A DNA stretch of 64,000 nt, taken from NCBI GenBank assembly GCA_963665665.1, contig OY762428.1:5184001-5248000 (forward strand), given 5' to 3'. Below the pieces are notes generated by a model that had not been told where the DNA came from, did not search any database, and saw only the letters and a program-made list of their open reading frames with translations. The position numbers were made by a program, and so were the translations under genes. Below, piece by piece: positions 10,153-27,074 of this stretch (position 1 is the stretch's first letter; every line of letters starts with the position of its first letter). The DNA is from Candidatus Kapaibacterium sp. (GTDB lineage: Bacteria > Bacteroidota > Ignavibacteria > Kapaibacteriales > UBA2268).

Positions 10153-12531
10153 TTACTTTTTCCTGAATAATTTTAATATCCCCGGAAGAATAACTAATGT
10201 TGCAAACCAGATCATGAATAAACCAAGGCAGGCGAAAATACCGATGGATTCAATGCCTGTGTGGTGGGCGAAAACCATACCCGAATATCCGAGAAGAGTG
10301 GTGAATGTTGCCAGTGAAAGTGGCCCTGTAAGTTCCTTCTGTGATTCGGATACATTTTTTCCCAATTCCCGCCAACGACGTATATAGTGTACTCCGCCGT
10401 CAACGCCCATTCCAAGAAGAGCGGGGATAACCACAATATTGAAGAATGATATTTTCAACCCTGTCAGCGACATAATACCAAGAGTAGCGCCGATTCCGAG
10501 TATTAAGGGTATAAGCACAAGCAGAGTGTCAACGATGGATTTATTACTGAGCCATACCAGCAATACAATAGCGGCAAATGTGGCGATACCTATCCAGGCG
10601 CTTTCGCTGAAGACGAGCCATAATAACTCTGCAAAGATCACTGTTTCACCGACCGGACCCTGAACTTTATCAGGAATATCCAGTGCGTATAAGTCGCGGG
10701 TAAATTTCATGGCGTTGCGGCCGTCTTTTCTTTCCTCTTCTGGATAGATTGTCAGCAGGTAATCATTACTGTCAAGCCCAACGAGAGAACTTTTCAAAAC
10801 ATCAGGGATTTCGTCAACGGAAGCGCATTTTTCCGGAATTTCCCATTCCCTGATTTTTTTGATTATATTCCTATATTCTTCATCCTCAACTTTATCGGCC
10901 CAGCTTCCTGAAAGTATATCTTTTATTTCTTCAATTAATTCAAGTCTTTCCTCTGCATCTTCTTCGACGGGGGCAAAATCTCTGATACTTCTTATCCTGC
11001 CTATCATAGACGAATCTTTGTTTGCCGCGTTCCTCACTTCTGCGTTAAATTTATCAAGAGCGTCTATTCCCTTAGCAAGATAAATTGCAGCCGGACTCAT
11101 TGATTTTGAAAATACTTTTCCGTGTTTTTCTCTTACCTTCAGGTAATCGCCAATTTCTGCCTTGTCGAAATTCATGTTGCTAAGATTATAATCAAAGCTG
11201 ATGGAGAATATCGAATAAATACCCAGAATCAAAGCAAGGGCGGCCAATGGAATTGAAACCCATGTTGGAAGGGTCATGGATTTTTCAGTTTTTCGGACGC
11301 CCTTACGAAATAGATTATAACGGGAAAAAATTATTAGAATGGATGGCAAAACAATATACATAGCCAGGAGAATGCACAATATTGATATTCCGGCTATGAT
11401 ACCAAATTCGGAGAATCCACGAAAACCGGAAAAAGCCAACACTGCAAGCGCCAACGCGGTCGTCAGTCCTGAAACAGTCACAGAAACACCTGTTGATTGG
11501 TATGTTATTATCAAAGCTTCCCGTACAGAATGATTTTCTAGCTCAAGAATATACCTTTTTACAAGATGTATGGAGAAATCAACCCCCATTCCAAACATTA
11601 TTAGAATAAGGAAAGAAGTAATCAGGTTAAGAGGCCCTACTGCCAGGGAGACAATAGCGAAGCCCCATATCAACCCGAATATTAAAGGAATCAGGACGGC
11701 AATCACTGGAAAAACCGCCCTGAAACCTATCACCAACAACAATATTATCAGAACTGAAGCAATTAATCCGGAAGTATTCAGGTCTCCGGTAATAGTATCC
11801 AGTTCATTTATTTTGTTTCTGTGATTGCCCCCGATACCGGTCCGGACAGAATATTTCCGTTCTGTACTTTTACAGATTGCTCCTATTTCAGAGTAAATAG
11901 TTTTAATCTTTCCTATGCTGCTTATTCCTTCAGCAGTTGGTATCATTATTCCGATAATTTTTCCGTCCCGGCTTTCGTAATATTCAGGCAGGCTAAGATA
12001 CTGCCTGATCATTACGTTCATATCCTGTTCGTTTTCAATATCATTATGAGTTTTGGGCTCATTATTATTGTCTGCATTACCCAGATCTTCGACGAAGGGA
12101 TTGGCTTTTGCCTCCCAGTCAATAGCCATATCATAAAGTGTTTCCAGGTAATCATTCGGAATCAGTGTAAAACCGTATTTACTTATAAATTCCATCGGAA
12201 ACTTTAACCTTACTTTATCAACATCGGGAAGCTTCTTAAGTTCGGCTGCTGCATAATTTGCCGCCTGAACAAGTTTATCCCGGTTTTCGGACTCAAGAAA
12301 TACAATAAAATGTCCCCTGTCGCCTATCTTATCTTCAATCAGGCTGTTATTAACAACGGATTTATTATCTTTCGGCAGCAGGCTCATCAGATTTGTATCA
12401 ATTTCCAGCTTGCTAAGTGTTAGTTCAGCAGGCGCAGTCAGAAGTAAAATCATAATCAGAGATAAAACAGGCCTTTTATAAATTGCTTTCAATATTCTTG
12501 TAACAGTTCTATCATACATCCCGTTCGGCAT
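10153..12531 (-). CDS. MMPL/RND-family lipid transporter (HpnN-like)
   Basis: Duplicated architecture with GMGVDFSIHL and GMGVDGGVH TM4/TM10 motifs, SGLTTALA and ATFTT. Confidence 0.9.
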   Translation of the reverse strand: MPNGMYDRTVTRILKAIYKRPVLSLIMILLLTAPAELTLSKLEIDTNLMSLLPKDNKSVVNNSLIEDKIGDRGHFIVFLESENRDKLVQAANYAAAELKKLPDVDKVRLKFPMEFISKYGFTLIPNDYLETLYDMAIDWEAKANPFVEDLGNADNNNEPKTHNDIENEQDMNVMIRQYLSLPEYYESRDGKIIGIMIPTAEGISSIGKIKTIYSEIGAICKSTERKYSVRTGIGGNHRNKINELDTITGDLNTSGLIASVLIILLLVIGFRAVFPVIAVLIPLIFGLIWGFAIVSLAVGPLNLITSFLILIMFGMGVDFSIHLVKRYILELENHSVREALIITYQSTGVSVTVSGLTTALALAVLAFSGFRGFSEFGIIAGISILCILLAMYIVLPSILIIFSRYNLFRKGVRKTEKSMTLPTWVSIPLAALALILGIYSIFSISFDYNLSNMNFDKAEIGDYLKVREKHGKVFSKSMSPAAIYLAKGIDALDKFNAEVRNAANKDSSMIGRIRSIRDFAPVEEDAEERLELIEEIKDILSGSWADKVEDEEYRNIIKKIREWEIPEKCASVDEIPDVLKSSLVGLDSNDYLLTIYPEEERKDGRNAMKFTRDLYALDIPDKVQGPVGETVIFAELLWLVFSESAWIGIATFAAIVLLVWLSNKSIVDTLLVLIPLILGIGATLGIMSLTGLKISFFNIVVIPALLGMGVDGGVHYIRRWRELGKNVSESQKELTGPLSLATFTTLLGYSGMVFAHHTGIESIGIFACLGLFMIWFATLVILPGILKLFRKK

Positions 12532-12548: not shown

Positions 12549-13112
12549 TTATTTCTTCAATTCTTTTAATTTGGACTTCAATCTTGATATGATTTGATCG
12601 TAGCTTTGCTTTTTGAACAATTTCCTGAATTGTTTTTTGTAATTTTTACTTGTGCTTATATCCTCTACGATATAGTTCACAATTTTCCATTTGCCTGATA
12701 TCTGTTTCATTTCGTAATTGATACTATAGCTTTTCTCTCCTGATTTAACATTAGTTTTAACAGTTGTCAGCCCGTCGTTTGTCTCTTCGCCAAGGTAACT
12801 GATGCTGTATGATGAGAAACCGGAAAGTTTATCTGCAATTGAATATTTTACCATTTCAGCAAAAACATCTTTTATATCTGCACACTGTTTGTCGCTTAAA
12901 TTCTTGCAGTATTTGTCCAGAACATCAGAGGAAATACATGAAAAGCAGGAATATTCTTCCAGTTCTTTAGCAATTTTCTCTTTGGATTTAACGCCGGATA
13001 TTTTTGAGTTTAGCGTCTTTATAATATCCGTTGCTCCGCCTCCGGCGGCATTTATCAGTGCAATTGCCGAAAAAAATATGATAATGTTAAAAATTAACTT
13101 CACTTTCATCAA
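12549..13112 (-). CDS. MlaC/Ttg2D/HpnM-family periplasmic lipid shuttle
   Basis: Signal peptide; INYEMKQISGKWKIVNYIVEDIS...NYKKQF matches the MlaC C-terminal pattern. Confidence 0.8.
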   Translation of the reverse strand: MMKVKLIFNIIIFFSAIALINAAGGGATDIIKTLNSKISGVKSKEKIAKELEEYSCFSCISSDVLDKYCKNLSDKQCADIKDVFAEMVKYSIADKLSGFSSYSISYLGEETNDGLTTVKTNVKSGEKSYSINYEMKQISGKWKIVNYIVEDISTSKNYKKQFRKLFKKQSYDQIISRLKSKLKELKK

Positions 13113-14472
13113 TCCACCTTAAATATTTTTCGAAAGTTGTTGTTTTTGAGGCAAGGTCGGCCAGAGCCTTATGATAATCAAGTATCATAGCTATTCTCCT
13201 GCCTTTAAGTTCGTAATAGGTTTTGTATGCCCTGATAAGCTTTTCAGCATCGCCAAATCCCATTTGCCAGTTATCCAGACCAAGAGCAAGCCACTTCTCC
13301 GCATTTTTAATGGATTCGTCAACTTTTGTTATCAGGCTGAAAATTCCGGAAGCATCGTTAAAAGACTGAATAACTTCAATTTTTACTTTTGTTTTGAGAA
13401 GTTCAAGATTCTCTTCCTGAACTTTAAGTTCCAATTTGTCAGAAGCGGCTTTGTCGCCGGAAGTAAGGAAATTTAAATTCCATGACATTCCGAGAAAAGC
13501 GCCCAGGTTCAGGTAATTGAAACTGTCGTACACAAATGGATTTGTCTGATCGTCCCTCCCCGGGGCGTACGCATACTGAACGCCTCCGGCCAGATATATC
13601 ATTGGCAGTGTTGAATTTCCCGCAAGCTGTGCCTTTTTTCTTAAAGCTTTAATTCCGGATTCGAGAGCTTTTATATCACTTCTTTCGGATAAAGCGGTTT
13701 CAATAGCAATCTGCCGGGCTGTGGCGGACGTATCCATTCGGGGAATTAATTCCATATCAAAAGAAATACTGTCACATCCGGTGATTTCTTTGAAAGCCAT
13801 TCTAACTGTTTGGTAGCCGTTTTTAGCTGTGGCAGAGACACTTTCAATCATGAAGTAATTGGATTTTACTTCCAAGAGGTCGCTTTCATCCAGGTCGCTG
13901 TCCTCTTTTTCAATTTCCTTATTTACTTCTTCAGTCAGCTTGGCAAAATTTGATTCAAGTTCATCAGCCAATTTAACAGAGTTTTTCAGAACGTTAACAG
14001 TCCAGTATGATTTTGCAATAATGTAACGGAATTTGTCAAGTTCAATTTCATTCATCCTGTCGCGGAGGTTGATTCCTTCTGTTGCCAAATCTTCGGCATT
14101 GTCGATTCTTCCAAAAGTATAAATCGGCTGCATAAATGTAAGTTCTGCCCTGACAAATGGCCCCCAGGAGTCAAGGTCTGTCTGTTTATCCTGCGAGAAA
14201 AAAACATCGCCCCTGGCATCGGGAACAATTCCGCCATTGATGTTCATTTTAATCTCAGGCAGGAATTTCATATCTTCAACCGTTCTGATATCCGTTTCAG
14301 CTAACTCTCTTTGAGCTTTGAGTTTCTCTAAAACATGAGATTCTCCGCCAAGGGCTGCCTTGACGACAGCCCTCAGTTCGTTTTGCCAAACCTTCGGTTC
14401 GGCCTTCTCTGCGGAGAAAATTTCAAGTTTGGGTTGTATTAAAAAAAATAATATAACGATTAATCTGGTCAT
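13087..14472 (-). CDS. TolC-family outer-membrane channel
   Basis: Signal peptide; two OEP repeats (FLPEI...QPIYTFGR; LPMIYL...MSWNL). Confidence 0.85.
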   Translation of the reverse strand: MTRLIVILFFLIQPKLEIFSAEKAEPKVWQNELRAVVKAALGGESHVLEKLKAQRELAETDIRTVEDMKFLPEIKMNINGGIVPDARGDVFFSQDKQTDLDSWGPFVRAELTFMQPIYTFGRIDNAEDLATEGINLRDRMNEIELDKFRYIIAKSYWTVNVLKNSVKLADELESNFAKLTEEVNKEIEKEDSDLDESDLLEVKSNYFMIESVSATAKNGYQTVRMAFKEITGCDSISFDMELIPRMDTSATARQIAIETALSERSDIKALESGIKALRKKAQLAGNSTLPMIYLAGGVQYAYAPGRDDQTNPFVYDSFNYLNLGAFLGMSWNLNFLTSGDKAASDKLELKVQEENLELLKTKVKIEVIQSFNDASGIFSLITKVDESIKNAEKWLALGLDNWQMGFGDAEKLIRAYKTYYELKGRRIAMILDYHKALADLASKTTTFEKYLRWIDESEVNF

Positions 14473-14515: not shown

Positions 14516-15832
14516 TTACACGCTGTGCCCATTTGAATCGAGATGAGTGATAACCTCTTCGCCCATCATTTTCCTCAAAGTGTTTTTCATCTTCATGAGC
14601 TGGATGAAAAGGTCATTTTCCGGAACCACATTTTTCTTATGCATCGGGCTTTTGAAATAGAATGAAAGCCATTCCTGAATACCTTTCATTCCGGCTCTGG
14701 ACGCGAGATCGTTCAGTAGTACAAGGTCGAGGCAAATTGGTGCTGCAAGGATAGAATCCCGGCACAGGAAATTGATCTTCAATGACATCTGGTAACCCAT
14801 CCATCCGAATATATCAATATTATCCCAGCTTTCCTTGTTGTCTCCACGAGGCGGATAATAGTTTATTCTTACTTTATGATAGTAGTTGTCGTAAAGATCA
14901 GGATAAACATCCGGCTGAATAATACTTTCGATCACTGAAAGTTTTGATTCTTCTTTTGTTTTGAATGACTCAGGATCGTCAAGAACTTCGCCATCCCTGT
15001 TGCCGAGTATATTACTCGAAAACCAGCCGTTAAGCCCAAGCATCCTGGCCTTAAGCATTGGAGCAATTACTGTTTTCAACATTGTCTGGCCGGTTTTAAA
15101 ATCCTTTCCGCAAATCGGAACTGAATTTTCAATTGCCAGTTCTTCAAGGGCCGGGACGTCAATTGTCAGGTTCGGAGCGCCGTTGATATACGGAACTCCC
15201 TCTTTGATTGCAGCCCAGGCGTATAGCATGGACGGAGAAATATCCTCGTGGTTATCCTTCATGGCCTGTTCGAAACGATGGATACTATTATGAACTTCTG
15301 ATTTACTTAGGAATACTTCCGTAGAGCCGCACCAGATAACCACGAGTCGGTCTAGCTCATTGTTTATTTTAAAATTTTGAATATCATTTCTCAGTTGCTC
15401 TGCAAGGTCATATTTTGTTGAAGCGGATTTAATATATTCGCCTTCAAGGTTATGTACGTAAGCCTGGTCGAAAACTCCGGGCATAGGTTTTATATTTTCA
15501 AGTTCGTCTTTTATATTGATATAGTCTCTTTCTTCGAGAACAGCATTGGACTGAAGAGATTCAAATAGGTTTTCATCCCGAATATCCCATCCGCCAAAAA
15601 CAATATCATCAAGGTTTGCCAGGGGTACAAAATCTTTTATCATCGGAAATTCATTGTTGATCCTTGCGCCTATCCTGATAGTCTGCATTTGTGTTACCGA
15701 GCCGACCGGTTGAGAATAGCCCCTTCGGATAGCTATTGTACCTGCTATAAAAGTCGAGGAAACAGCACCGTTCATACCTACAACGAGAACGCCGAGCTTA
15801 CCGTTTGCTTCTTTGATCTGTAACTTATCCAT
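14516..15832 (-). CDS. ino1: myo-inositol-1(3)-phosphate synthase (MIPS)
   Basis: IWCGSTE, YINGAPN, GKDFKTGQT, NILGNRDG, PPRGDNKESWD and CRDSILAAP. Confidence 0.96.
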   Translation of the reverse strand: MDKLQIKEANGKLGVLVVGMNGAVSSTFIAGTIAIRRGYSQPVGSVTQMQTIRIGARINNEFPMIKDFVPLANLDDIVFGGWDIRDENLFESLQSNAVLEERDYINIKDELENIKPMPGVFDQAYVHNLEGEYIKSASTKYDLAEQLRNDIQNFKINNELDRLVVIWCGSTEVFLSKSEVHNSIHRFEQAMKDNHEDISPSMLYAWAAIKEGVPYINGAPNLTIDVPALEELAIENSVPICGKDFKTGQTMLKTVIAPMLKARMLGLNGWFSSNILGNRDGEVLDDPESFKTKEESKLSVIESIIQPDVYPDLYDNYYHKVRINYYPPRGDNKESWDNIDIFGWMGYQMSLKINFLCRDSILAAPICLDLVLLNDLASRAGMKGIQEWLSFYFKSPMHKKNVVPENDLFIQLMKMKNTLRKMMGEEVITHLDSNGHSV

Positions 15833-15855: not shown

Positions 15856-16560
15856 TTAATCCATGTTTATAATTACATTGGTTATTTCTGAAAAATCACT
15901 GATGATGATATCATAATCAGGTTGGTCATCATCATTTACCCACGATTTGTTTTTTAGCCAAATTGATCTTGCACCCAGTTCGATTGCAGGAGCAATATCA
16001 TTTTTATATGAATCTCCAATAATTACAACTTCATTATTTTCAAGCTTCAAAGCATCTATACCCATTTGCCATATTGTCTTATCAGGCTTCCTGATATTGA
16101 TTTCACCCGAATCGATCAAGCAGTCAATTTGATATAATACTTCGAATTCCTGCATTATTGATTTCAGGTTTCCATAGAAATTTGATACAATCCCAATTTT
16201 ATAAAATTGTTTTAATATCGACAGATATTCAATATTTCCGGCTATGGTTTTTGATACTTTATGGAAAATATTATTACAAATATTTCTCCCCGTTTTATCA
16301 GAAATCTGAATACTTGTATTCTTTCTTAGATAATTTATTTGAGAATAGATTTTCAAGCCTAATGTTTCGGAAAGCCTCGTATCCGGAGGGATAATTATCT
16401 TAGCCATTCTTCTTTCTGCAAAGATGTATGCTTCTCTGAATATATCTTCGTCAATATCCAAATCAAACTCTTTGTAGGATTGTAAAAAATACCTGAACCA
16501 GTGAATACCACCGGTATCGATAGTTCCTCCGAAATCGAACAATAATCCTTTTATACTCAT
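15856..16560 (-). CDS. HAD-family phosphatase (putative inositol-lipid phosphate phosphatase)
   Basis: FDFGGTIDT, VSNF, RKPD and IGDSYKND motifs; operon context. Confidence 0.8.
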   Translation of the reverse strand: MSIKGLLFDFGGTIDTGGIHWFRYFLQSYKEFDLDIDEDIFREAYIFAERRMAKIIIPPDTRLSETLGLKIYSQINYLRKNTSIQISDKTGRNICNNIFHKVSKTIAGNIEYLSILKQFYKIGIVSNFYGNLKSIMQEFEVLYQIDCLIDSGEINIRKPDKTIWQMGIDALKLENNEVVIIGDSYKNDIAPAIELGARSIWLKNKSWVNDDDQPDYDIIISDFSEITNVIINMD

Positions 16561-17549
16561 GCCCCGGTCCTTTTGTTAAGAATTGGTATTATCAGAAATC
16601 CTGCTGCTATCCAGAATATTTCCCGGATACGTGTTGTAAGTGAAACAAATAATCCCAGGCCCGGAGCAAGGCTTAATGTTGCAATTATAAATGTAAGGCT
16701 GCCTTCACGGACTCCAAGCTGCATCGGTATGAAAAATATCATATTAGCTATCAGCGATGATGCCGCTGAAATATATATTGCGTCAGCAAAACTTATATTA
16801 ATTCCAATTGCTTTCAGAATCAGGAAAAACTCAAAAGAAGCAACAATTCTGGAAACTAATTCAAAGCCCAGTGATTTATAAAATCCACTTTTGTCATTTT
16901 GATAAAAATCAGATATTAATACATCAATTTCTTCAAGCTTTGCTATATAATGTTTTTCCGAAAGGATTTTTCCTATAAGCGGCAACTGTACAAGGATTTT
17001 GTGCAATTTGATAATAAATCCCTTTTTGAACAGGGACATAAAAATTGTCAAAAGCAATCCTGTAAAAATTACAGAGCAACAGATAATCATAAGGTTGTCG
17101 CCTTCAAGCCCGAGGCTTGCCAGCATGATAATCAGGCCAAGAATCCAGAACCATACATGTGAATACATGTGCATCATTGAATACAGAAGAACTGCCGCAG
17201 CAGATCTTGAGCCGGTAATTTCTTTTCCGAGAACAGACATTCTGTATGGCTCGCCGCCAAGGCTGACAAAAGGCGTTACATAATTAATTGCATACCCTGA
17301 AATTGTTAACCCGAGTATTTTTGAAAATGAAACTTTGTCTGATTTTGAATTAATAATAAATTTCCACGACATGGCATTCAGAAGATAAACCGCAAGCCAT
17401 ACGAATAATATCGGAATAAAATACCAGGATACTTGCGAAATTTTTTCTAACATCAGCACTATTCCGTAATTATTTATCATAAGCGCAATGGCGATTAATC
17501 CGGCTAAATAAAGAAGGATTTTGAAATATTTTTTTAGTACAGCCTTCAT
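16557..17549 (-). CDS. Lysylphosphatidylglycerol-synthase TM domain / flippase-like membrane protein
   Basis: About 8 TM helices; INYVTPFVSLGGEPYR and PMQLGVREG motifs. Confidence 0.85.
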   Translation of the reverse strand: MKAVLKKYFKILLYLAGLIAIALMINNYGIVLMLEKISQVSWYFIPILFVWLAVYLLNAMSWKFIINSKSDKVSFSKILGLTISGYAINYVTPFVSLGGEPYRMSVLGKEITGSRSAAAVLLYSMMHMYSHVWFWILGLIIMLASLGLEGDNLMIICCSVIFTGLLLTIFMSLFKKGFIIKLHKILVQLPLIGKILSEKHYIAKLEEIDVLISDFYQNDKSGFYKSLGFELVSRIVASFEFFLILKAIGINISFADAIYISAASSLIANMIFFIPMQLGVREGSLTFIIATLSLAPGLGLFVSLTTRIREIFWIAAGFLIIPILNKRTGA

Positions 17550-18457
17550 TACTCAGCAAACTCCCAAATCAGTTTCCTGCTCATACTTTCATGCCTTAAA
17601 ACCATATATATCAAAAGTAGATTCAATACCGTCAGTTCAAACCACAGGTAAATCCAAACATTGCCGAGAAGAACAGAGATGAATAATGTGATCATCCTTG
17701 TATTGGTAGTAAGGATATTTGTATATTTCATTAGTGGTTTACTCAGTTCACGGTATCTTTCGCGCATGTAAGCCGGTATATTGTCTCCGTATTTTCCAAC
17801 AACAAAATCTCTGAAAATTCCGTATTTGCGGGCAATAAATTGCTGCTGGCTAACATAATTAATAAACATTCTTAAATATAATTTCCTGAAAAAATCCGAC
17901 TTCCAACTAAGTGATTTGTAGTCCTCTTTAAGTTGTTTCAGGTCTTCGATATCTTTCAAGCTGTTCTTGCCGATAAATATCAGATGCTGCGTACGATAAT
18001 AATCAGCCATGGCTGCCTGGAGGGAGTGGAAAGCACCCACCATTATCATGAATAAGAATATAGCTGGAGAGTAACCTTCATTTATAAGCCTCAACATTAG
18101 GTGAACGTAAATACTAACAAACCAGAGATTGCCTGCAAATCCGTCCAGGAATCGCCCGAGTTTGGTACAGTTATTTGTCATTCTGGCAAGTTGGCCGTCG
18201 GCGCTGTCCAGCAGATTGGCAAATACCAGGCTGATAATACCGATAATATTCAAAGTCAGATCATGATAATAGAACATGTGCCCGGCAAGTATTCCCCAGA
18301 AAATGCTAATGATAGTTATCGGATTTGGCGTTAGGCCTACTTTTTTTGAAAACAATGCAATCAGGTAGCCAACCGGCCTGTAAAATATCAGGTCGAGTGT
18401 TTCTTCCGTGTCGGCCGATTTTAATGTTGATTTTAGTGTACTTTTTTGCTCTACCAT
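17549..18457 (-). CDS. CDP-alcohol phosphatidyltransferase (putative PIP / inositol-lipid synthase)
   Basis: TPNPIT and DSADGQLARMTNNCTKLGRFLD (DxxDGxxAR...GxxxD). Confidence 0.92.
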   Translation of the reverse strand: MVEQKSTLKSTLKSADTEETLDLIFYRPVGYLIALFSKKVGLTPNPITIISIFWGILAGHMFYYHDLTLNIIGIISLVFANLLDSADGQLARMTNNCTKLGRFLDGFAGNLWFVSIYVHLMLRLINEGYSPAIFLFMIMVGAFHSLQAAMADYYRTQHLIFIGKNSLKDIEDLKQLKEDYKSLSWKSDFFRKLYLRMFINYVSQQQFIARKYGIFRDFVVGKYGDNIPAYMRERYRELSKPLMKYTNILTTNTRMITLFISVLLGNVWIYLWFELTVLNLLLIYMVLRHESMSRKLIWEFAE

Positions 18458-19329
18458 GTCTGTTCTTCCAGTTCAAATAATTCAAATTTCTGTGATCTGC
18501 GTTGTTCAATATTTTGAAATATAACTTTTGCTATCATTCCCGAAGCCTCTTCCCGAACAGGAGCGAAGCTGGGCCAGTCGTTGATATCTATAAAATAAAT
18601 CTCTCCGTCCGGTGTAATTATCGCATCACCCCCGAAAAATTTAAGGTCAAACAAGTTTGCGCAACGAAATATTTCATTTTTAAGCTTACTTTTGCTGAAA
18701 GGATATTCGTTATGGCCATTTGCGTAATACCAGTAGATGTAATCTGCTTCAGGGACGGCATAAAATTTAATCTCATCGCCGCCAATATGCTCCATAACCG
18801 AGGCTTTGCTGATTCCCCTTCTCATGAACTCTTTCAGAATATTACCTAACTCGGAGGGGGAATAAACTTTCACAATATCTTCGCGGTGATTTATATGCCC
18901 TTCCCTTTTTACCCAAAGTTTATTTTTCGAGAATGCGGATGCTATCCTTTCGGCATATTTGTAATCTTCAGTACTCACGGTAATATTAACCGGGGTGGAA
19001 ATATTATTTCTGGTGAGTATGTCCATCATGTTTTCCCTGTGACAGTTCCTTACACCCCTGACCGAGTTAAGAATCATGGAATTATTATTCTCTAGATTTT
19101 TAAGATTTTTCAAAGCGTTTGAACTTCTTGCCATCGTAAAAATTACATCTTCTGTAATATTTATTTTATCTAAATCATTTTCATCATAATAGTTTACTAT
19201 TGTACCCATATTTTTAAGTTTTTCGCCTGTTAGCTGGAGTATAATACTGTCGTTATCCACGTGGTTGGGTGAGAACCTTGTAGCCCTTCTGATAGCAGCG
19301 ACACTTTTTATCATATACTCGCCTTCCAA
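18451..19329 (-). CDS. ATP-grasp protein, ITPK1 (inositol phosphate kinase)-like
   Basis: LWVKR, VMEHIGGDEIKFYAV and FFGGDAII...IYFIDINDWPSF ATP-grasp motifs. The kinase role is inferred. Confidence 0.65.
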   Translation of the reverse strand: MEGEYMIKSVAAIRRATRFSPNHVDNDSIILQLTGEKLKNMGTIVNYYDENDLDKINITEDVIFTMARSSNALKNLKNLENNNSMILNSVRGVRNCHRENMMDILTRNNISTPVNITVSTEDYKYAERIASAFSKNKLWVKREGHINHREDIVKVYSPSELGNILKEFMRRGISKASVMEHIGGDEIKFYAVPEADYIYWYYANGHNEYPFSKSKLKNEIFRCANLFDLKFFGGDAIITPDGEIYFIDINDWPSFAPVREEASGMIAKVIFQNIEQRRSQKFELFELEEQTW

Positions 19330-19334
19330 ATAGT

Positions 19335-19778
19335 TTAATAATTTATCTTAATGACCTGTTCAACTTGTTTGTCCTTTACTTCAAAACACGCGTCGTCGAA
19401 GTCCGGAATACCCATTCCGAGGAATGCTTTTGCATTGTTCGAGCAAGCCCAGCCTTCGCTGGGAAGGCCAAGAAAAGTCTTATCCATTTTCTTGTTTCCG
19501 TTTTCATCATGATGAACTGTAAAAGCATACTTGCCTGGTTTAAGCCCTGCGAAAAGGAATTCGGCCTGCATATCATCAAGATCGAAATCATTAATATATT
19601 TCATAGCTTTTTTTGAATTAGTAGGATAGCCGTCCTCGCTATTAAAAATGTGGCAAACCACCCAGCCGTTTGAATTTCTGAGCCCGTTCACCACGACATG
19701 AACCGAGCCGGTTGAACCAGCGCCGGTGTCAGACGGAGCTATGAGCAGCAACACAAATAAATATATTATTATATTCAT
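19335..19778 (-). CDS. DUF2141 family exported protein
   Basis: Signal peptide; PGKYAFTVHHDENGNKKMD...GLPSEGWACSNNA. Confidence 0.85.
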   Translation of the reverse strand: MNIIIYLFVLLLIAPSDTGAGSTGSVHVVVNGLRNSNGWVVCHIFNSEDGYPTNSKKAMKYINDFDLDDMQAEFLFAGLKPGKYAFTVHHDENGNKKMDKTFLGLPSEGWACSNNAKAFLGMGIPDFDDACFEVKDKQVEQVIKINY

Positions 19779-20476
19779 TTCTCATCCTTTAAAAATTTTT
19801 CGGCTTTATCAATATCTTTAATATGGTCAACATCAATTATCTTTGAAAATTCAAAGGCTTTAACTTTAAGTTGTCTTTCAAGAAGCATTCTCTGAAAATT
19901 TCTGAGCATGTGAATTCCTTTGTCAAAACATTCATTCAGAACATCAATAACTGTCGGAGCGAAGTAATATATTCCTCCGGATACAAGGCTTGTATCTTCC
20001 CGATCATCCGGGAATGCCGTTATATCATGGAATTGATTGGTTCTTATATATAGCGGCTTTTCGTCGTCGATATAGGGGGTTGCAGCCATAACAGCATCAT
20101 AATCGTCAAGATTTCTTGCGTAATTGATGTAACTGCTAAACTCTTTTTCCCTGAAAACGGTGTCAACAGTAAACAGGCAGAAATAATCGTCTTTCAGCCA
20201 ATCTCTCATTTCATACAGGCTGTGCATAGAACCGGGTGTATTCTTAACGAGAAGATTGATATTCATTCCATTTGTTATTTTTTTAATGTGTTTCTCCAGG
20301 GTTTCCGAATTTCCATTGATAATAATTGAAAGGCTGTTATAATCAAATTTTGATATTAGTTGTATCAGTCTTTCTATCATCGGAATGCCGTTGAGTTTTA
20401 CTAAACCTTTTGGTTTATTAAGGCCTTCATTGTTGAGCCTGGAACCCAACCCCGCTGCGAGAATGGCGAAATTCAT
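19775..20476 (-). CDS. NTP transferase (putative inositol-phosphate cytidylyltransferase)
   Basis: MNFAILAAGLGSRL...PKGL and IDVD. Start placed at ATG 20476; the track's upstream extension to 20575 crosses a palindromic operator. Confidence 0.85.
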   Translation of the reverse strand: MNFAILAAGLGSRLNNEGLNKPKGLVKLNGIPMIERLIQLISKFDYNSLSIIINGNSETLEKHIKKITNGMNINLLVKNTPGSMHSLYEMRDWLKDDYFCLFTVDTVFREKEFSSYINYARNLDDYDAVMAATPYIDDEKPLYIRTNQFHDITAFPDDREDTSLVSGGIYYFAPTVIDVLNECFDKGIHMLRNFQRMLLERQLKVKAFEFSKIIDVDHIKDIDKAEKFLKDEK

Positions 20477-20511
20477 ATTTAACCTGTTAATATATCTAAA
20501 TGATTTAACAT

Positions 20512-20539
20512 AAAAGATTAACCAATTGGTTAATCTTTT
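20512..20539. promoter_or_regulatory. Perfect 28-bp palindrome, probable operator of the inositol-lipid operon
   Basis: AAAAGATTAACCAATTGGTTAATCTTTT, 35 bp upstream of the operon's first ATG. Confidence 0.7.
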
Positions 20540-20760
20540 TTTTTTCAATTTACAATTTTTTTTTAATACCAGCAAAACATTTTTAACTGAATGGTTAAAT
20601 AATATTTATAATATATGTATTACTTTCACTTAAAACATATAATAAACTACATAGGTATAAATAGTATACATAAGAGTATAAAAATTTCTGTCCGATAAAA
20701 ATTATTAACGGATTTTCACTATTCCGACTATGCAGAATATTTTATTTTATTACCTGACTT

Positions 20761-21393
20761 CTATCTTTTAACCAAGCCATTCATGGTAATATCCATGAAA
20801 ACTTTTGAAATTCGTTCAAAATCGGAATCTGAATGATCACCCATGATCAATGCGTCAAAAAAGACGTGAGTTAAAATTATATAAGCATCAATATCGATAT
20901 CTTCTCTTATAATGCCATCTTTTTGGCAATCGTCCATAAAATTTTTGAATATTTCATGGCTGACTTCATCTTTCTGTTTCAATTCTTTCTTAAGCAAAGG
21001 ATATTCTATTGACACATCCTTTGCAAATCTTCTCGTAAAACCACTGAATCGCTTCGGAATATCGTTGAACAATATTTCAAGTTTTTCTTTATTAGTTTTG
21101 TTGCTTGAAATAATTTTTTCAATAGCTGCTTTATTATCTAACATGCCGCTCAGAAAAAGTCTGGATATCAGATTTTCCTTGCTGCCTATAATCGCATATA
21201 ATGTTTTCTTTGCAAGACCACTGTTCCTGGCAAGATCGTCCATATTCCAGCCTTTTATGCCATATTTCTCGATTAATTCCAAAGCGTTCTCATAAACAAC
21301 TTCTTCGTATTCTTTGTTATTAACTTTTTTCATCCTTCTCGCACCTTGCTTATACTGTCTCGTTTCATTTAGTGTAAGATACGAATTTTCCAT
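20761..21393 (-). CDS. TetR/AcrR-family regulator
   Basis: ALELIEKYGIKGWNMDDLARNSGLAKKTLY HTH; GGAG upstream of 21393 (alternative start 21333). Confidence 0.88.
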   Translation of the reverse strand: MENSYLTLNETRQYKQGARRMKKVNNKEYEEVVYENALELIEKYGIKGWNMDDLARNSGLAKKTLYAIIGSKENLISRLFLSGMLDNKAAIEKIISSNKTNKEKLEILFNDIPKRFSGFTRRFAKDVSIEYPLLKKELKQKDEVSHEIFKNFMDDCQKDGIIREDIDIDAYIILTHVFFDALIMGDHSDSDFERISKVFMDITMNGLVKR

Positions 21394-21454
21394 AGTAACT
21401 CCAAAAAAGTATTTTTATTTTAAATTATTTTCAAATCATTAAAAAAAATTCTTT

Positions 21455-22798
21455 TCAATACCTGGCTGTTGCAACTAAATAATTAGCCTGCTTGATTTTA
21501 TAGTTAGCTTTTGCATCTGTAAGATCATTAAGCGTAGACTGGTGAATTGCCCTGGCTTCAAGGAGGTCGGAAGTAGTTACTATTCCGGCATCGTAATTGT
21601 CCTGTATTACTTTCAGGTGTTCTTCTGCCTGAAGTACTGATGCTTCGGCAACTTTTATTTGCTGAAAACTATCGAACAGGTCGCGGTATGATTTTTCAAT
21701 CTGCAGGGCAATCAGTTCGGATTTTTCCTCCAGATTATTTTTTGCAATTTCAATTTCAATTTCTTTTTCCTCGATTTCATGCGAACCTCCCCACCAGTCA
21801 GAGATTGGGACACTAAGGTTGACCATTCCTATTAAATTTGAACTTTCCGTATCCATAATATCAAGATAAAGCGCCTGTGCCCCAATGCTTAATTGCGGAT
21901 AATATTCTCCGGCCTGAATATCTTTCTGTAAATTCCCGGCTTCAACAGCCATGTTCAGCAGCTGTATTTCATTTCTTGATTTAAGTGCTCCGGGATGGTC
22001 TGTTTTTATTGTTTCAGGAGCAGGGGTGTCAAATACCGGGGTGCTGATATCGAATTCTTCTGAATATTCAACCCCGATATGCTGTGCAAGGCTCATTTTC
22101 AGTAGTGTTGTACCGTTTGTTAATTTAATTTTGTTTGCATTTATTTTGCTTATTTCAAGCTGAACTTTCAGCAGGTCGCTTTTTTGTACAAGTCCTGCGT
22201 GCAATGCTGTTTGAACATCGGATTCAAGTGTTTTCAATAGTTTTTCATAACTCAGCAGCGTGTTCATCTTTTCTTCCAGGGACCTTATAGTCCAGAAGTA
22301 ATTCTCAGTTCGGAGCAGGACTTCATCAATAGTCAGCAGAGATTTCTTCTTTTTGATATCAATAGCAAGGCCTGCAAGTTTGTTGGCATTTCTTATACGT
22401 CCTCCTGCATATATTGGCTGAATTATATTAACAGCAGCAAGATTTGTGTAGTCAAGCAGCTCCAGTTTCATACCCGGAAAATAAGCAAATTCTGTTGCAG
22501 TACGCAAGTTAGCCGGGTTGCCGTCGTAAACCGGTAGGTTCATTTCGGGTACTTCAGCTTCAAGTAACGGGTCCATAGCTTTCATTACAGTTGCATTTGC
22601 ACTTATATTGGGATAATATTTCGTGTATGCCGATTTTTTAACTTCTTCAGAAGCTTTTATTTCGTAATTACTTTCCCTGATCTTTTTATTGTTTTCCAAT
22701 GCATATTTTTTGCATATTTCCAGGCTTAATTCTTCTGCAGAAATATTTACCGCCATAGATACTATTAACACTAAAAAAACTGATATTTTATTAAACAT
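21455..22798 (-). CDS. TolC-family outer-membrane efflux protein
   Basis: Signal peptide; LSLEICKKYALENN, YYPNIS, QPIYAGG and YYPQLS...VPISDW. Confidence 0.92.
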   Translation of the reverse strand: MFNKISVFLVLIVSMAVNISAEELSLEICKKYALENNKKIRESNYEIKASEEVKKSAYTKYYPNISANATVMKAMDPLLEAEVPEMNLPVYDGNPANLRTATEFAYFPGMKLELLDYTNLAAVNIIQPIYAGGRIRNANKLAGLAIDIKKKKSLLTIDEVLLRTENYFWTIRSLEEKMNTLLSYEKLLKTLESDVQTALHAGLVQKSDLLKVQLEISKINANKIKLTNGTTLLKMSLAQHIGVEYSEEFDISTPVFDTPAPETIKTDHPGALKSRNEIQLLNMAVEAGNLQKDIQAGEYYPQLSIGAQALYLDIMDTESSNLIGMVNLSVPISDWWGGSHEIEEKEIEIEIAKNNLEEKSELIALQIEKSYRDLFDSFQQIKVAEASVLQAEEHLKVIQDNYDAGIVTTSDLLEARAIHQSTLNDLTDAKANYKIKQANYLVATARY

Positions 22799-22814
22799 TT
22801 TTATTCCTTGCCTA

Positions 22815-25800
22815 TTATATACTTACATTCTCAGGTTCAATTTCTTTTTGCGATGTTGTCTTCCAGTAGAGTACGGGGACTACAAACAGAGTTTGCAACA
22901 TACCGAATATCAGGCCAAAGCAGATAACAGCACCGAGCGGGCCCCATAGTGGCGAATTGCTGATTATCATTGGTACAACGCCAATTGCGGCTGCCATGGA
23001 AGTCAGAAATATTGGTCTCATTCTGCGCCTGCCTGCTGCAATTCCGGCTTCCATAAAGCTCATCCCGTCTTTTTCCACGAGTTGCATTGCGTAATCAACC
23101 AGTATTATTCCATTCCTGACAGTTATTCCCATTAATCCTATTAACCCTATAAAAGATGTAACTCCAAAAGGATAGCCTACTATTAACAGCCCTAAACTAA
23201 CGCCAAATAAGCTTAGCAACATCGTTGACATAATTAAAAGTGACCTGCGTATTGTTTTAAACTGGAATAAGAGAATGAAGAATATCAATACAATACTTGT
23301 TGCTAAAGCTTTACCCATAGGTACAAATACTTCCAGTCCCATTTCTTTTTCACCACCGTACACGATATTAACACCCTGGGGTAATTTAATTGATTCAATT
23401 GCTTCATGGACTTCATTGAATACTTTTGAGTAGATAACAGCTCTCTCAATATCTGCCTGCACAGTAATAGTTCTGACTCCGTTTCTCCTTACAATTTGTC
23501 CTTCGGTCCATTCCGGATGTAAAGTTGCTACAGACCTTAGCGGAAGTGATTCCATTGTAAAAGGAGAAACAACATATTGATTTTCAACATCTTTTATATC
23601 GTTTTTAAATTCTTCTTCATTTGAAAGGACCACTTCAACAGGATAGTCACCTTCCCATACTGTAGTCACAGGAAGTCCGCTAAGTGCGGTCATCAAAGAA
23701 GTGGAAACAAAAGTTTTGGTATAACCCATACGGTTTGCTTTGTCCCTGTCAAGCTCTACCTGGATACCCCGTCTTTTTTCAAGCCAGTCGGTTCTTATCC
23801 ATGTTGTTTTCTCATTTCTGTCAAGAATACCGGAAACTTCAGAAGCCACTTCTTTGATTTCCCTTATATTATCTCCGGAAATTCGAATTTCGATAGGAGC
23901 GGGGAAACTTTCCATAGCAATTTGTTTCCATTTAATGTGGGCCTGCGGGAAGATGTCTCTGTACTTTTGGCTGTATTCGTCAAGTACTTCAACTGTTGCA
24001 TTGTTTGATACTGTATTTACCAGTATCTGCCCGTAATTTTTCGCCGGCATGTGAGGTGCGTATAAATCGTGAAACCTTGGCGATCCGCTGCCGACAAAAC
24101 TTGCTACATTGGTAATCCTTTTGTCATCCATAAGAATATTTTCAAGGCTGTCAATTACTGTTTCTGTTTGTTCCAGGGAATATCCCTCCGGAAGATAAAC
24201 TTCAACTGCGAACTGCATCCTGTCCATCGAAGGAAATACCTGCATATCAATATTTTTAAACATAATTATTGCGATTAAAACCGATAATACACCGGAAAAA
24301 ATTGTTGTTTTGGGCCATCTGAATGCAAGATCGAGTATCTTATCGTATTTTTCCTGAACTATGTCCAGAAAGCTTTTTTTATTTTTTGTTTTGGAACTGT
24401 CGTGCAGCCCTTTTTTTATAAATATGAAGCAGATTACCGGCACAAGGAGTATTGCGATGATTAATGATATTCCAAGAGCAATACCGATTGTTAACGGAAA
24501 ACTACCTACAAAATCACCAGCCATTCCCACAAGGAACATCATCAATGGAAAAAAAGCAGCACATATTGCAGCTGTAGCCGAAAGGACTGGTATATACAGG
24601 TCGGTTGCTGCTTTCCAGGCCGCATCCCATGGAGAATCCCCGTGATCGAGTTTTTCAACATGGTTGTCTATTATCACTATTGCGTTATCCACAACCATGC
24701 CCAGAACAACTATAAGCCCGGCAAGTGAGACGGTATCGAGTTGTATACCAACCATCTGCATGATTCCAAGTGTGATCATAATTGTTATTGGGATAGTAAC
24801 TGCTGCAACCGATGCTATCCTGAATGGCAAAAGGATCATCGTAACAATTATAACTGCAAGCACTGCTATCAAAAATTCTTTCAGAAAATGACTTATTGAG
24901 TTATCAACCACTTCACCCTGATTTGATATTATATTCAAATCAATTTTTCCCGAATATTTTGAAGAGAAATTATCAAGTATTGTTTCTACTTCTTCGCTGA
25001 ACTCGACAATATTTCTTCCGAGCTGCATTTCCAGGGATAAAAGAAGAGCATTTTTTTTGTTATTTCGAATATAACTGTCTGGCTTATCGTATTTTCTTTC
25101 TACTCTGGCAATATCTTTCAGTCGAATTACATTTCCCATAGGATCTGAATATACGATCTGCTCTTCAAGGTCTTTTACAGATTCAAAACGGGGTGGAAGG
25201 TGAACAGGCATTGTCAGAACATTATTATCCAACATTCCTGCATAATTGAGTGCATCCTGTATTTTAAATGATGCAAGAATACTCGTTGGATTTACAGAGT
25301 ATTCGTTTAATTTTTCAGGTTTTGTATAAATAAATATTTTTTCTTTTTGCTCTCCGTATTTTTTAATTTTCGAAACTGATTCAAGTTTACGGATTTCAGT
25401 TTCCAGCTCTTCCATTGAATCTTCAAGTTCCCGGTAATCTTTGCTTTCCGATGACATAGTAACAAGTAGGGCGGAGGTATCGCCAAAATCATTTGTACCA
25501 AACAGGGCAAGCACACCTGATGGAAGTTTCATTTTAAGTTCCTCAAGCCCATGCCTGAGCTTGGACCAAAACTGGTCTGAATTTTCGACGTCGTCATTTA
25601 GTTCCACGAAAACTATCATCATTCCTTCGCGGGACTGGGAATAAGTTTTCTCTTTGTTGATTTCCTTGTAGCCAAAAAGATAATTTTCAACATCTTTAGT
25701 AAGCTGCTGCTCAACTTCCAGAGAAGTTGCCCCGGGATATACTCCTATAACAAGGCCCTGGCGTATAGTAAAATGAGGAAATTCATTTCTTGGCATTGTT

Positions 25801-25901
25801 GCAAGGGAAAAACCTCCGATAATCATCATTACCAGAACAATTGATATTATAACCTGGCGGTATTTCATTGATAATTCTATCAGATTCTGCTTTTTCATCA
25901 T
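22815..25901 (-). CDS. AcrB/AcrD/AcrF-family RND efflux permease
   Basis: 1028 aa; GMVVDNAIVI, NGIILVD and RRRMRPIFLTS. Confidence 0.95.
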   Translation of the reverse strand: MMKKQNLIELSMKYRQVIISIVLVMMIIGGFSLATMPRNEFPHFTIRQGLVIGVYPGATSLEVEQQLTKDVENYLFGYKEINKEKTYSQSREGMMIVFVELNDDVENSDQFWSKLRHGLEELKMKLPSGVLALFGTNDFGDTSALLVTMSSESKDYRELEDSMEELETEIRKLESVSKIKKYGEQKEKIFIYTKPEKLNEYSVNPTSILASFKIQDALNYAGMLDNNVLTMPVHLPPRFESVKDLEEQIVYSDPMGNVIRLKDIARVERKYDKPDSYIRNNKKNALLLSLEMQLGRNIVEFSEEVETILDNFSSKYSGKIDLNIISNQGEVVDNSISHFLKEFLIAVLAVIIVTMILLPFRIASVAAVTIPITIMITLGIMQMVGIQLDTVSLAGLIVVLGMVVDNAIVIIDNHVEKLDHGDSPWDAAWKAATDLYIPVLSATAAICAAFFPLMMFLVGMAGDFVGSFPLTIGIALGISLIIAILLVPVICFIFIKKGLHDSSKTKNKKSFLDIVQEKYDKILDLAFRWPKTTIFSGVLSVLIAIIMFKNIDMQVFPSMDRMQFAVEVYLPEGYSLEQTETVIDSLENILMDDKRITNVASFVGSGSPRFHDLYAPHMPAKNYGQILVNTVSNNATVEVLDEYSQKYRDIFPQAHIKWKQIAMESFPAPIEIRISGDNIREIKEVASEVSGILDRNEKTTWIRTDWLEKRRGIQVELDRDKANRMGYTKTFVSTSLMTALSGLPVTTVWEGDYPVEVVLSNEEEFKNDIKDVENQYVVSPFTMESLPLRSVATLHPEWTEGQIVRRNGVRTITVQADIERAVIYSKVFNEVHEAIESIKLPQGVNIVYGGEKEMGLEVFVPMGKALATSIVLIFFILLFQFKTIRRSLLIMSTMLLSLFGVSLGLLIVGYPFGVTSFIGLIGLMGITVRNGIILVDYAMQLVEKDGMSFMEAGIAAGRRRMRPIFLTSMAAAIGVVPMIISNSPLWGPLGAVICFGLIFGMLQTLFVVPVLYWKTTSQKEIEPENVSI

Positions 25902-25931
25902 TTCTCGCTTCTTTTTTCCAAATAAATTATT

Positions 25932-26966
25932 CTATAAACTGATTTCTGTTTTACCATTTAACTTATCCTGTCCGTCTATCAGCACCTGGTCTCCTTCGGA
26001 TAATCCCGATTTAACTTCAATGTCGTTGTTACAAAAAATTCCGGTTTTAATATCCTGTCTGATTATTTTATTAGTTTTTGTATCTACCATGTAAATATAT
26101 TTATCATTATTTTCATCCTTAAGCACGGCCTTATAGGGGATAGTAAGAGCCATATCGCTGGCGCTTGTCTCAAGATTAACATCGCAGGCCATACCCGGTT
26201 TGATTTTATGCCCGGGATTATCCACAACAATTTTTACTTCGTATGTTTTGGATACGGGGCTTGCCATTACGCCTATCTTATCTACTATTCCGGTGGCGTT
26301 ATCAATTCCGGCAGCAGGGATTGATATATTAGCTTTATCTCTTGTGCTTATCCTTGATATTTCATTTTCCGGAACTGATACTTTTACATATATTCTATTA
26401 ATATCAACAAGTTCGAAAACAGGAATACCCGGAGCTGCGTTAGATCCAATCTCAATATTCCTTGAGCCAATAACACCTGCTACAGGTGCTTTCAATAAGC
26501 AGTCGTCCAGGTTTTCTTTAGCAATATTACTGGTTGATTTTGCCTGCTGAAGTTTCGATACAACTTCTTCCCATTTAATGTCCGGCAGGCTTCCGTTCTC
26601 ATGAACTTTCCTGAGTCTTTCGTGGGCGTCTTCAGCCTGCTCAAGCATGGCAAGTGAAGCATCGTATGAATTCTGCATAGTGGTTTTGTCTAAAATAGCC
26701 AAAGTTGCTCCTGCAGATACCATGTCTCCAATATCCACCTTTATTTCATGAACGGAGCCTGGTATGCTAAACCCAAGAGAGGTTTTCTTGAATGGCTCGG
26801 CTACGCCACTATATTCAAATTTATTAGATCGATATTTCATCTTGGCTTTAACTGTCTGAATTTTTATCTTTTCGTTCTTTCTGGTTAATTGACTGCTTTC
26901 ATCAGTTCCGCAGGAACTAATTAAAAATGAAATAAGAACACTTGTAAATATGATTTTTGCCTTCAT
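25932..26966 (-). CDS. RND efflux membrane-fusion (periplasmic adaptor) lipoprotein
   Basis: Lipobox ISSC; LKAPVAGVI and VKSGLSEGDQV. Start set at ATG 26966 (AGGA upstream). Confidence 0.92.
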   Translation of the reverse strand: MKAKIIFTSVLISFLISSCGTDESSQLTRKNEKIKIQTVKAKMKYRSNKFEYSGVAEPFKKTSLGFSIPGSVHEIKVDIGDMVSAGATLAILDKTTMQNSYDASLAMLEQAEDAHERLRKVHENGSLPDIKWEEVVSKLQQAKSTSNIAKENLDDCLLKAPVAGVIGSRNIEIGSNAAPGIPVFELVDINRIYVKVSVPENEISRISTRDKANISIPAAGIDNATGIVDKIGVMASPVSKTYEVKIVVDNPGHKIKPGMACDVNLETSASDMALTIPYKAVLKDENNDKYIYMVDTKTNKIIRQDIKTGIFCNNDIEVKSGLSEGDQVLIDGQDKLNGKTEISL

Positions 26967-27074
26967 GAAAATAGTCCTTCGTAAATCGTATATAAAAATA
27001 TTATTCAAATTTTATCGATAATCAGAAAATATCAAAAATCTTTTAGCTGAATTAGTGTAAATTACTTAAAGAAT

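Follow-up and report, generated by a model that had tools for sequence, protein, structure and literature searches.

A large bacterial family of ATP-grasp enzymes, without name and uncharacterised within a superfamily that is itself known, is a constant and so far overlooked member of the gene set for inositol lipids. We describe it here from the genome of Candidatus Kapaibacterium sp. (assembly GCA_963665665.1), in which one of its genes occupies positions 18451..19329, on the minus strand, of a stretch of 64,000 nucleotides of contig OY762428.1 (positions 5,184,001 to 5,248,000; hereafter the window). The ATP-grasp fold of the product, its intact ATP- and metal-binding residues, its linkage to genes of lipid head-group synthesis and its fusions with the corresponding enzymes are documented below. 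The best reading of these data is that a phosphorylated inositol head-group intermediate is formed, and we give about an even chance to the more precise proposal that the enzyme is a cyclitol or cyclitol-phosphate kinase, paired with a phosphatase of the HAD family in CDP-inositol head-group synthesis.

Gene linkage and fusions

Linkage was assessed in 80 related loci which, being seeded on the ATP-grasp gene, contain it by construction, and in which the partners were sought by tblastn with the proteins of the window. A CDP-alcohol phosphatidyltransferase (CDP-OH transferase) was found in 78 of these loci, a HAD phosphatase in 74, a nucleotidyltransferase (NTP transferase) in 72 and a flippase-like protein in 29; the gene of myo-inositol-phosphate synthase (MIPS) lies inside the retrieved flank in 51. 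With few exceptions, the genes stand in the order NTP transferase, ATP-grasp, CDP-OH transferase, flippase-like protein (when present) and HAD, with the ATP-grasp gene sitting between the two transferases. Among the six loci devoid of a HAD gene, five are on short contigs ending near the ATP-grasp or transferase gene and the sixth (L019) has a partial HAD match, under the 40% coverage filter. The 80 loci belong to Ignavibacteria, Kapabacteria, many Bacteroidales (Muribaculaceae, Parabacteroides, Dysgonomonas, Prevotellaceae and Bacteroides graminisolvens), Sphingobacterium, Dyadobacter and a few metagenome-assembled genomes (MAGs) labelled otherwise.

The distribution of the gene is patchy: of 24 genomes from the family to which the window belongs, 2 have it, and of 401 sampled from the phylum, 23. 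All of these 23 genomes have an orthologue of the CDP-OH transferase (E<=9e-72), and no cluster of NTP transferase and CDP-OH transferase without ATP-grasp gene was found among the 401. Five further genomes of the sample have a transferase orthologue (E 8e-75 to 1.5e-58) and no ATP-grasp match. In their loci (L085-L089, from genomes G076, G165, G260, G168 and G267), the transferase has 38-41% identity, and there is no NTP transferase, ATP-grasp, HAD or MIPS gene within about 8 kb. A co-variation test, asking if HAD is lost together with ATP-grasp, was uninformative, as these transferase-only genomes are also without the NTP transferase. Such lone transferases recall the single BEPIS homologue of Tannerella forsythia, an organism described as taking up its inositol (Megson, 2015; PMC4587543). 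Moreover, the genome under study has a second, distant CDP-alcohol transferase paralogue with 30% identity (G000:C1:1164141-1164950; 9142-9981 of L096), which adjoins a weak NTP-transferase-like match, with no ATP-grasp, HAD or MIPS gene nearby, and which is probably a separate CDP-alcohol system.

The association extends to the proteins themselves. Six of the top 150 representatives of the family are fusions of an NTP transferase with the ATP-grasp domain (P0063, P0065, P0086, P0122, P0129 and P0130) and P0032 is a further one, for a total of 7 protein clusters, while among the same 150 P0103 (802 aa) combines HAD, NTP transferase and ATP-grasp domains, and P0180 (818 aa) NTP transferase, ATP-grasp and CDP-OH transferase domains. 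A search among longer proteins scored 8000 candidates, and the single fusion that it found is thus an undercount. Because of these fusions with NTP transferase, HAD and CDP-OH transferase, we conclude that in several lineages the ATP-grasp enzyme forms a physical part of the soluble machinery that activates the head group. The fusion of a kinase with a nucleotidyltransferase is a common pairing, as in HldE and FKP. Another of these 150 representatives, P0174 (691 aa), has PAS, HisKA and HATPase_c domains fused N-terminally to the ATP-grasp domain and may be a real sensor fusion or an artefact of gene calling.

Catalytic core and fold

In the list of open reading frames (ORFs) of the window, the gene starts with TTG and encodes 292 aa. 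Since the database copy of the protein (P0001, 100% identity) has 287 aa, translation probably begins at the ATG at 19314 (Met6), giving a product of 287 aa. The translation holds 'EIKFYAV' together with 'KFFGGDAIITPDGEIYFIDINDWPSF' and 'FFGGDAIITPDGEIYFIDINDWPSF', from which a preliminary description of the window had proposed an ATP-grasp enzyme similar to the inositol phosphate kinase ITPK1. These motifs are no chance resemblance and form the conserved core of the family. Indeed, W134, K136, K183-F-Y185, G228-G-D230 and D243-x-N245-D-W-P-S-F250 are invariant in 30 homologues, and among 146 representatives taken at 50% identity none of these positions falls below 90% conservation. As for the catalytic residues of the 146 representatives, K136 and N245 never vary and K183, D230 and D243 are conserved to at least 90%; in the alignments, all five face their equivalents in RimK, PsnB and the ITPKs. 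The loop following the ATP lysine reads K-R-x-x-H-x-x-H-x-E-D, with H140 and H143 each found in at least 90% of 36 sequences. For the family-specific residues R10, D22, N83, R93, D146 and W247, counterparts elsewhere could not be assigned.

The number of representatives that the family profile retrieves from 1.84 billion sequences is 1693 with E<=1e-3 as limit, 1070 with 1e-10 and 562 with 1e-30, and the peptide pattern DxNDWPSF[AS] occurs in at least 599 stretches of GTDB species genomes, 594 of the matches listed being confirmed as relatives, so that at least 594 species genomes carry the gene. The window protein has no match in NCBIfam and, at E<=10, only a sub-threshold match to SAM_2 in Pfam, and its single sequence gave three chance-level matches in the PDB with phmmer (E>=0.035). 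At E<=10, the ITPK model PF05770 matches neither this protein nor any other place in the whole genome, and the RimK model PF08443 matches six other places, the ATP-grasp gene not being among them. Thirty relatives scanned singly gave Pfam matches that were all weak (E>=0.003) and below threshold, to ATPgrasp_ST (11), RimK (8 at E<=1, best 0.003), Ins134_P3_kin (6 at E<=1, best 0.005), YheCD (4) and ATP-grasp_3 (2). Membership of the ITPK family proper is therefore not sustained, as PF05770 misses the gene and reaches only those 6 of 30 relatives, each time below threshold. The matches in the ESM Atlas were all to unnamed clusters of this very family and gave no hint of function, 28 of the 30 being without Pfam family and one set carrying RimK on 16% of its members; 10 of 31 homologues bear the JGI product name 'glutathione synthase/RimK-type ligase-like'. 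A full-text search of the literature found no paper joining CDP-inositol and ATP-grasp, and, among the papers listed on CDP-inositol since 2021, no title or abstract opening deals with this enzyme.

The AlphaFold2 model built on the family alignment (pLDDT 93.9, pTM 0.88) has the three-subdomain ATP-grasp fold, without membrane segment, and together with its structural matches it bears out the assignment to the ATP-grasp enzymes. With the full-length model, Foldseek placed Ddl, RimK, PsnB and LysX/ArgX at the top (about 1e-13), and fold comparison put RimK ahead by about 3 Z units, the RimK group being the closest overall structure, a lead which is due to the N-terminal part. The catalytic half folded alone (182 aa, pLDDT 92.1) gave Z scores of 11.6 with VanA, 11.1 and 11.0 with RimK, 10.7 with AtITPK4 (root-mean-square deviation 2.5, 160 aligned residues, 19% identity) and 10.6 with each of LysX, StITPK1 and Ddl. 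The structural comparison between ITPKs and ligases, suggested in the preliminary description, thus went to the ligases at full length and ended in a tie within 1 Z of kinases and ligases for the catalytic half. Fold rank was consequently rejected as a discriminator between the two activities, and the comparison of predicted folds indicates an ATP-grasp enzyme and no more.

Searched against the PDB, a family profile built from 30 sequences matched PsnB (2e-6, in two pieces), RimK (9e-5, positions 68-270) and AtITPK4 (9e-5, C-terminal 60 residues only). With 146 sequences, it matched PsnB (2.8e-8), AtITPK4 (1.8e-6) and RimK (1.5e-4), followed by four HsITPK1 entries (about 6e-4) and EhITPK1 (7e-4), ITPKs making up 5 of the top 8 sequences. 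The match to AtITPK4 then covers positions 178-269, with 'FKFYVLG' facing 'vKFYgV'. In the HMMER alignments to AtITPK4, HsITPK1 and EhITPK1, D230...D243-x-N245 and the lysine of the 'KFY' strand align with 'FGxD...IDxN' and 'FKFY' of the ITPKs, and the likeness of the C-terminal motifs to ITPK1 is in this respect upheld. The metal motif of the family is D-x-N as in ITPK1, against E-x-N in RimK and PsnB; ahead of the hairpin, its strand bears a lysine and that of RimK an arginine. The alignment to RimK (7qyr) sets 'EGTQGIGV' against 'gdvhaehreDv', 'DIRCF' against 'eiKFY' and 'MEVNSSPG' against 'iDlNDWPS'.

We take H162 and H167 of HsITPK1 to be placed in a loop matching the post-lysine loop of the present family, and H140 and H143 may, judged by sequence, be their counterparts. 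According to Desfougères et al. (2019; PMC6900528), H167, K199 and R212 are the most conserved of the residues by which HsITPK1 contacts inositol phosphates, and K18, K59, H162 and G301 are less so. In the present family, the lysine of the KFY strand corresponds to K199.

The family thus differs from both groups that it resembles. Compared with the ITPKs (PF05770; PDB 2qb5, 1z2n, 8oxe, 7pup), the window protein is below every Pfam threshold, its N-terminal half aligns with ligases and an R212 equivalent is not evident; ITPKs act in soluble signalling, whereas the window gene belongs to a lipid head-group operon. Compared with the RimK/LysX/ArgX ligases (PF08443; PDB 4iwx, 5k2m, 3vpb), it is not reached by PF08443 and has, besides D-x-N for E-x-N and lysine for arginine, a His/Arg/Glu/Asp loop in place of the Gly-rich loop of RimK. 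A gene for a protein or carrier substrate was not found near the ATP-grasp gene in the window or in the 80 loci.

The operon and known inositol-lipid systems

The ATP-grasp gene is one of a run of ten ORFs on the minus strand, which mostly overlap or are less than 45 bases apart and which form a translationally coupled operon. In operon order, these are:

19775..20575, minus strand, nucleotidyltransferase, candidate CTP:inositol-phosphate cytidylyltransferase (PF00483 1.8e-13, PF12804 5e-13)
19335..19778, minus strand, DUF2141 protein, accessory gene (PF09912 6.9e-29)
18451..19329, minus strand, ATP-grasp enzyme of a family without name (AlphaFold2 fold, fold matches, invariant residues; no Pfam or NCBIfam match)
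17549..18457, minus strand, CDP-alcohol phosphatidyltransferase, candidate head-group transferase (PF01066 8.8e-13)
16557..17549, minus strand, flippase-like membrane protein, LPG_synthase_TM/HpnL-like (PF03706 8.4e-27; TIGR03476 1e-28, below cut-off)
15856..16560, minus strand, HAD-family phosphatase (PF13419 7e-15)
14516..15832, minus strand, myo-inositol-phosphate synthase, MIPS (PF07994 1.2e-106, PF01658 8.2e-34)
13087..14472, minus strand, outer-membrane efflux (TolC-like) protein, OEP (PF02321 4.2e-32)
12549..13112, minus strand, MlaC-like periplasmic lipid-binding protein (PF05494 7.6e-27)
10153..12531, minus strand, MMPL/RND-type transporter (PF03176 3.8e-33)

The CDP-alcohol transferase gene overlaps the stop of the ATP-grasp gene by 7 bases, and the nucleotidyltransferase has a sub-threshold match to the archaeal IPCT/DIPPS model NF041135 (2.8e-13). 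That the enzyme is operonic with MIPS, as previously proposed, is confirmed by this run; its description as lying next to MIPS holds in the sense of one operon of overlapping ORFs, MIPS (14516-15832) being three genes downstream and not the immediate neighbour. OEP, MlaC and MMPL are likely a lipid-export module of which OEP is the first gene.

Some members of the operon are of restricted occurrence. A DUF2141 gene stands between the NTP transferase and ATP-grasp genes in the window and in 4 of the 80 loci, labelled as Kapabacteria or Hyphomicrobiales MAGs. OEP, MlaC and MMPL are found in 2 of the 80, with OEP in the same position; these two (L015 and L040) are among the four DUF2141 loci and have the OEP-MlaC-MMPL tail in common too. 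Directly upstream of the inositol operon is a TetR-family regulator, recognised by a Pfam match (20761-21393, minus strand), and beyond it ORFs of 447, 1028 and 358 aa (21455-22798, 22815-25901 and 25932-27008; minus strand throughout 20761-27008), whose translations alone suggest an outer-membrane factor, an RND pump and a membrane-fusion protein.

This operon is the one that Heaver et al. (2022; PMC9246714) proposed for B. vulgatus and Prevotella under the name of 'putative alternative inositol lipid cluster' and left unverified. In their scheme, an NTP transferase produces CDP-inositol from which a CDP-alcohol transferase makes the lipid, a HAD hydrolase being also part of the cluster. All four genes (NTP transferase, CDP-alcohol phosphatidyltransferase, HAD hydrolase and MIPS) are within the window operon, which has an LPG-synthase-like protein in common with the cluster as well. 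In the text available from PMC9246714, no ATP-grasp enzyme, ligase or kinase is named for the cluster, the word 'kinase' occurring once, in the title of a reference. The locus tags given there pass from RS13095 (NTP transferase) to RS13105 (transferase) and skip RS13100, which should, by synteny alone, be the candidate ATP-grasp gene.

In B. thetaiotaomicron, a PIP synthase is followed by a PIP phosphatase, and in the synthesis of di-myo-inositol phosphate (DIP) the phosphatase likewise follows the transfer, as the HAD of the window operon could (Heaver et al., 2022; PMC9246714). Rhodothermus marinus has a CDP-inositol operon encoding IPCT and BEPIS (cited in Megson, 2015; PMC4587543). Like the window, this pair and the IPCT/DIPPS of hyperthermophiles associate a cytidylyltransferase with a transferase using CDP-inositol. 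To our knowledge, both pathways have been described without an ATP-grasp step. An analogy is also offered by ADP-heptose synthesis, in which the kinase HldE, the HAD phosphatase GmhB and the HldE nucleotidyltransferase, sometimes fused, move a phosphate before activation. It is an analogy only, since the kinase has the ribokinase fold and the substrate is a heptose.

A candidate cyclitol kinase and its alternatives

For a CDP-inositol route, MIPS, a cytidylyltransferase and a transferase are enough, as is reported for Rhodothermus marinus (Jorge, 2015, cited in PMC4587543). The near-constant presence of an ATP-grasp enzyme and a phosphatase calls for an explanation. The simplest one using every conserved gene is that the ATP-grasp enzyme puts a phosphate on and the HAD takes one off; phosphotransfer to a hydroxyl, its substrate and the order of the steps are our inference. 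MIPS would form 1D-myo-inositol 3-phosphate (1D-Ins(3)P); the ATP-grasp enzyme, acting on this product, on free inositol or on CDP-inositol, would add a second phosphate; the HAD would remove one phosphate, either from a soluble bisphosphate or later from the lipid; the nucleotidyltransferase would provide the CDP-activated head group, which the CDP-alcohol transferase would pass to a lipid alcohol; and the flippase-like protein with OEP, MlaC and MMPL would carry the lipid outward.

Two rationales may be envisaged for such a detour. First, as MIPS phosphorylates position D-3, the addition of a second phosphate and the removal of one could switch the position that is activated with CDP. Second, a removable phosphate could make the CDP-alcohol transfer irreversible, for which a kinase would be needed because, with CDP-inositol as donor, only a kinase supplies such a phosphate. 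Transfers from CDP-alcohols that yield polyol phosphodiesters with a phosphatase acting afterwards are exemplified by PgsA/Pgp and DIPPS. The gene order NTP transferase, ATP-grasp, CDP-OH transferase and HAD, together with the fusion of HAD to the CDP-OH transferase in Prevotella veroralis (Heaver et al., 2022; PMC9246714), fits a scheme in which CDP-inositol is phosphorylated first and the lipid dephosphorylated afterwards; the fusion of HAD, NTP transferase and ATP-grasp domains would suit a soluble order of steps. A cyclitol kinase of the ATP-grasp fold is plausible, since Ins(3)P is a substrate of ITPK1 and, in a Lokiarchaeon, genes of ITPK homologues adjoin those of MIPS (Desfougères et al., 2019; PMC6900528).

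Several points weigh against this proposal. The CDP-alcohol transferase of R. marinus is reported to use CDP-L-inositol directly (Jorge, 2015, cited in PMC4587543), which means that a kinase is not chemically required. At the position of HsITPK1 R212, about 13 residues after K183, no conserved basic residue is evident, as read from the alignment and not from a superposition, and the Pfam ITPK model has no above-threshold match to the protein or to the 30 relatives. The best PDB profile match is PsnB, an ester-forming ligase, and the best full-length folds are ligases; the aminotransferase loci (15 of 80) and tandem ATP-grasp genes described next would suit ligases as well. More generally, most enzymes of the ATP-grasp superfamily are ligases.

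The foremost alternative, which we judge unlikely, is a true ligase. It would convert a carboxylate to the acyl phosphate and couple this with a hydroxyl or amine on an inositol-type head group or on its CDP form, giving an acylated or aminoacylated head group. Besides the overall similarity to RimK, ArgX/LysX and Ddl, the match to PsnB and the RimK-type naming of 10 of 31 homologues, it would account for the extra genes of some loci, a class-III aminotransferase (15 of 80) and a Gfo/Idh/MocA oxidoreductase (14 of 80), mostly in Ignavibacteria-type clusters with MlaDEF genes, which would create the amine. It would also be consistent with the tandem ATP-grasp pairs of four sampled Ignavibacteria-type genomes of one family (G139:C51, G209:C4, G410:C9 and G414:C1). 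However, the window and 65 of the 80 loci keep the ATP-grasp gene without an aminotransferase, so that the minimal cluster offers no amine to an amide ligase and the conserved job cannot be amino-group acylation. Neither a carrier protein nor a small conserved ORF stands alongside in the 80 loci, the E-x-N motif and Gly-rich loop of RimK are replaced, and the species bearing the alternative cluster are described as containing plain PI-dihydroceramide and no acylated form in the available text of Heaver et al. (2022; PMC9246714). The tandem pairs of L098 (7669-9361) and L099 (7956-9595) are located inside larger clusters, for which Pfam recognises in L098 radical-SAM and nucleotide cyclase domains, MlaE/F/D, a class-III aminotransferase, a Gfo/Idh/MocA oxidoreductase and an EEP-family phosphatase/nuclease.

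Less probable still is an action at the lipid stage, by phosphorylation of the completed inositol lipid, or another role, such as an ATP-dependent step new to the fold. In most loci the HAD and membrane transferase genes are adjacent, and in P. veroralis they are fused (PMC9246714), as would suit a lipid stage, and the family-specific residues to which no counterpart is assignable would suit another role. However, the enzyme is modelled without a membrane segment and its commonest fusion partner is the soluble nucleotidyltransferase. Finally, an ITPK1-type kinase whose end products would be soluble higher inositol phosphates (from InsP2 upward), the possibility raised in the preliminary description, has for it the ITPK-like catalytic motifs and C-terminal profile matches and the operon shared with MIPS, from whose product Ins(3)P ITPK1 can start (PMC6900528), and is nevertheless highly improbable and set aside, since no kinase of the IPK or IPK1 families was found in this 99.5%-complete genome, the constant and sometimes fused partners are lipid head-group enzymes, PF05770 misses the gene and an R212 equivalent is not evident.

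Returning to the cyclitol kinase paired with the HAD phosphatase, its interest lies in the pathway to which it would belong. The inositol-lipid route of Prevotella, Phocaeicola vulgatus, Muribaculaceae and many environmental bacteria is a genomic proposal only, and a family of at least 562 sequence clusters, with no Pfam model, no name and no mention found in the literature searched, is a constant member of it, often fused with the neighbouring enzymes. Assigning its reaction would complete or correct the pathway and tell whether bacteria have ITPK-like cyclitol kinases. The alternative pathway becomes a directly testable five-enzyme scheme, a moderate surprise for the specialist. We see a little less than an even chance that the family is the first one of bacterial ITPK-like inositol or inositol-phosphate kinases and provides an obligatory step missing from the alternative CDP-inositol lipid pathway. 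If so, the published three-enzyme scheme would be incomplete for gut Bacteroidales, Sphingobacterium, Ignavibacteria and other phyla, and HAD and kinase would together reposition a phosphate, or add it temporarily, for the head group to be activated and transferred irreversibly. Phosphorylation of cyclitols by the ATP-grasp fold would then be older than eukaryotes and Asgard archaea, or would have arisen independently. The inositol lipids of gut Bacteroidota influence the capsule, resistance to antimicrobial peptides and how well the cells do in their host (Heaver et al., 2022; PMC9246714). An assigned reaction would moreover offer a handle, by knock-out or inhibitor, on a widespread class of bacterial membrane lipids.

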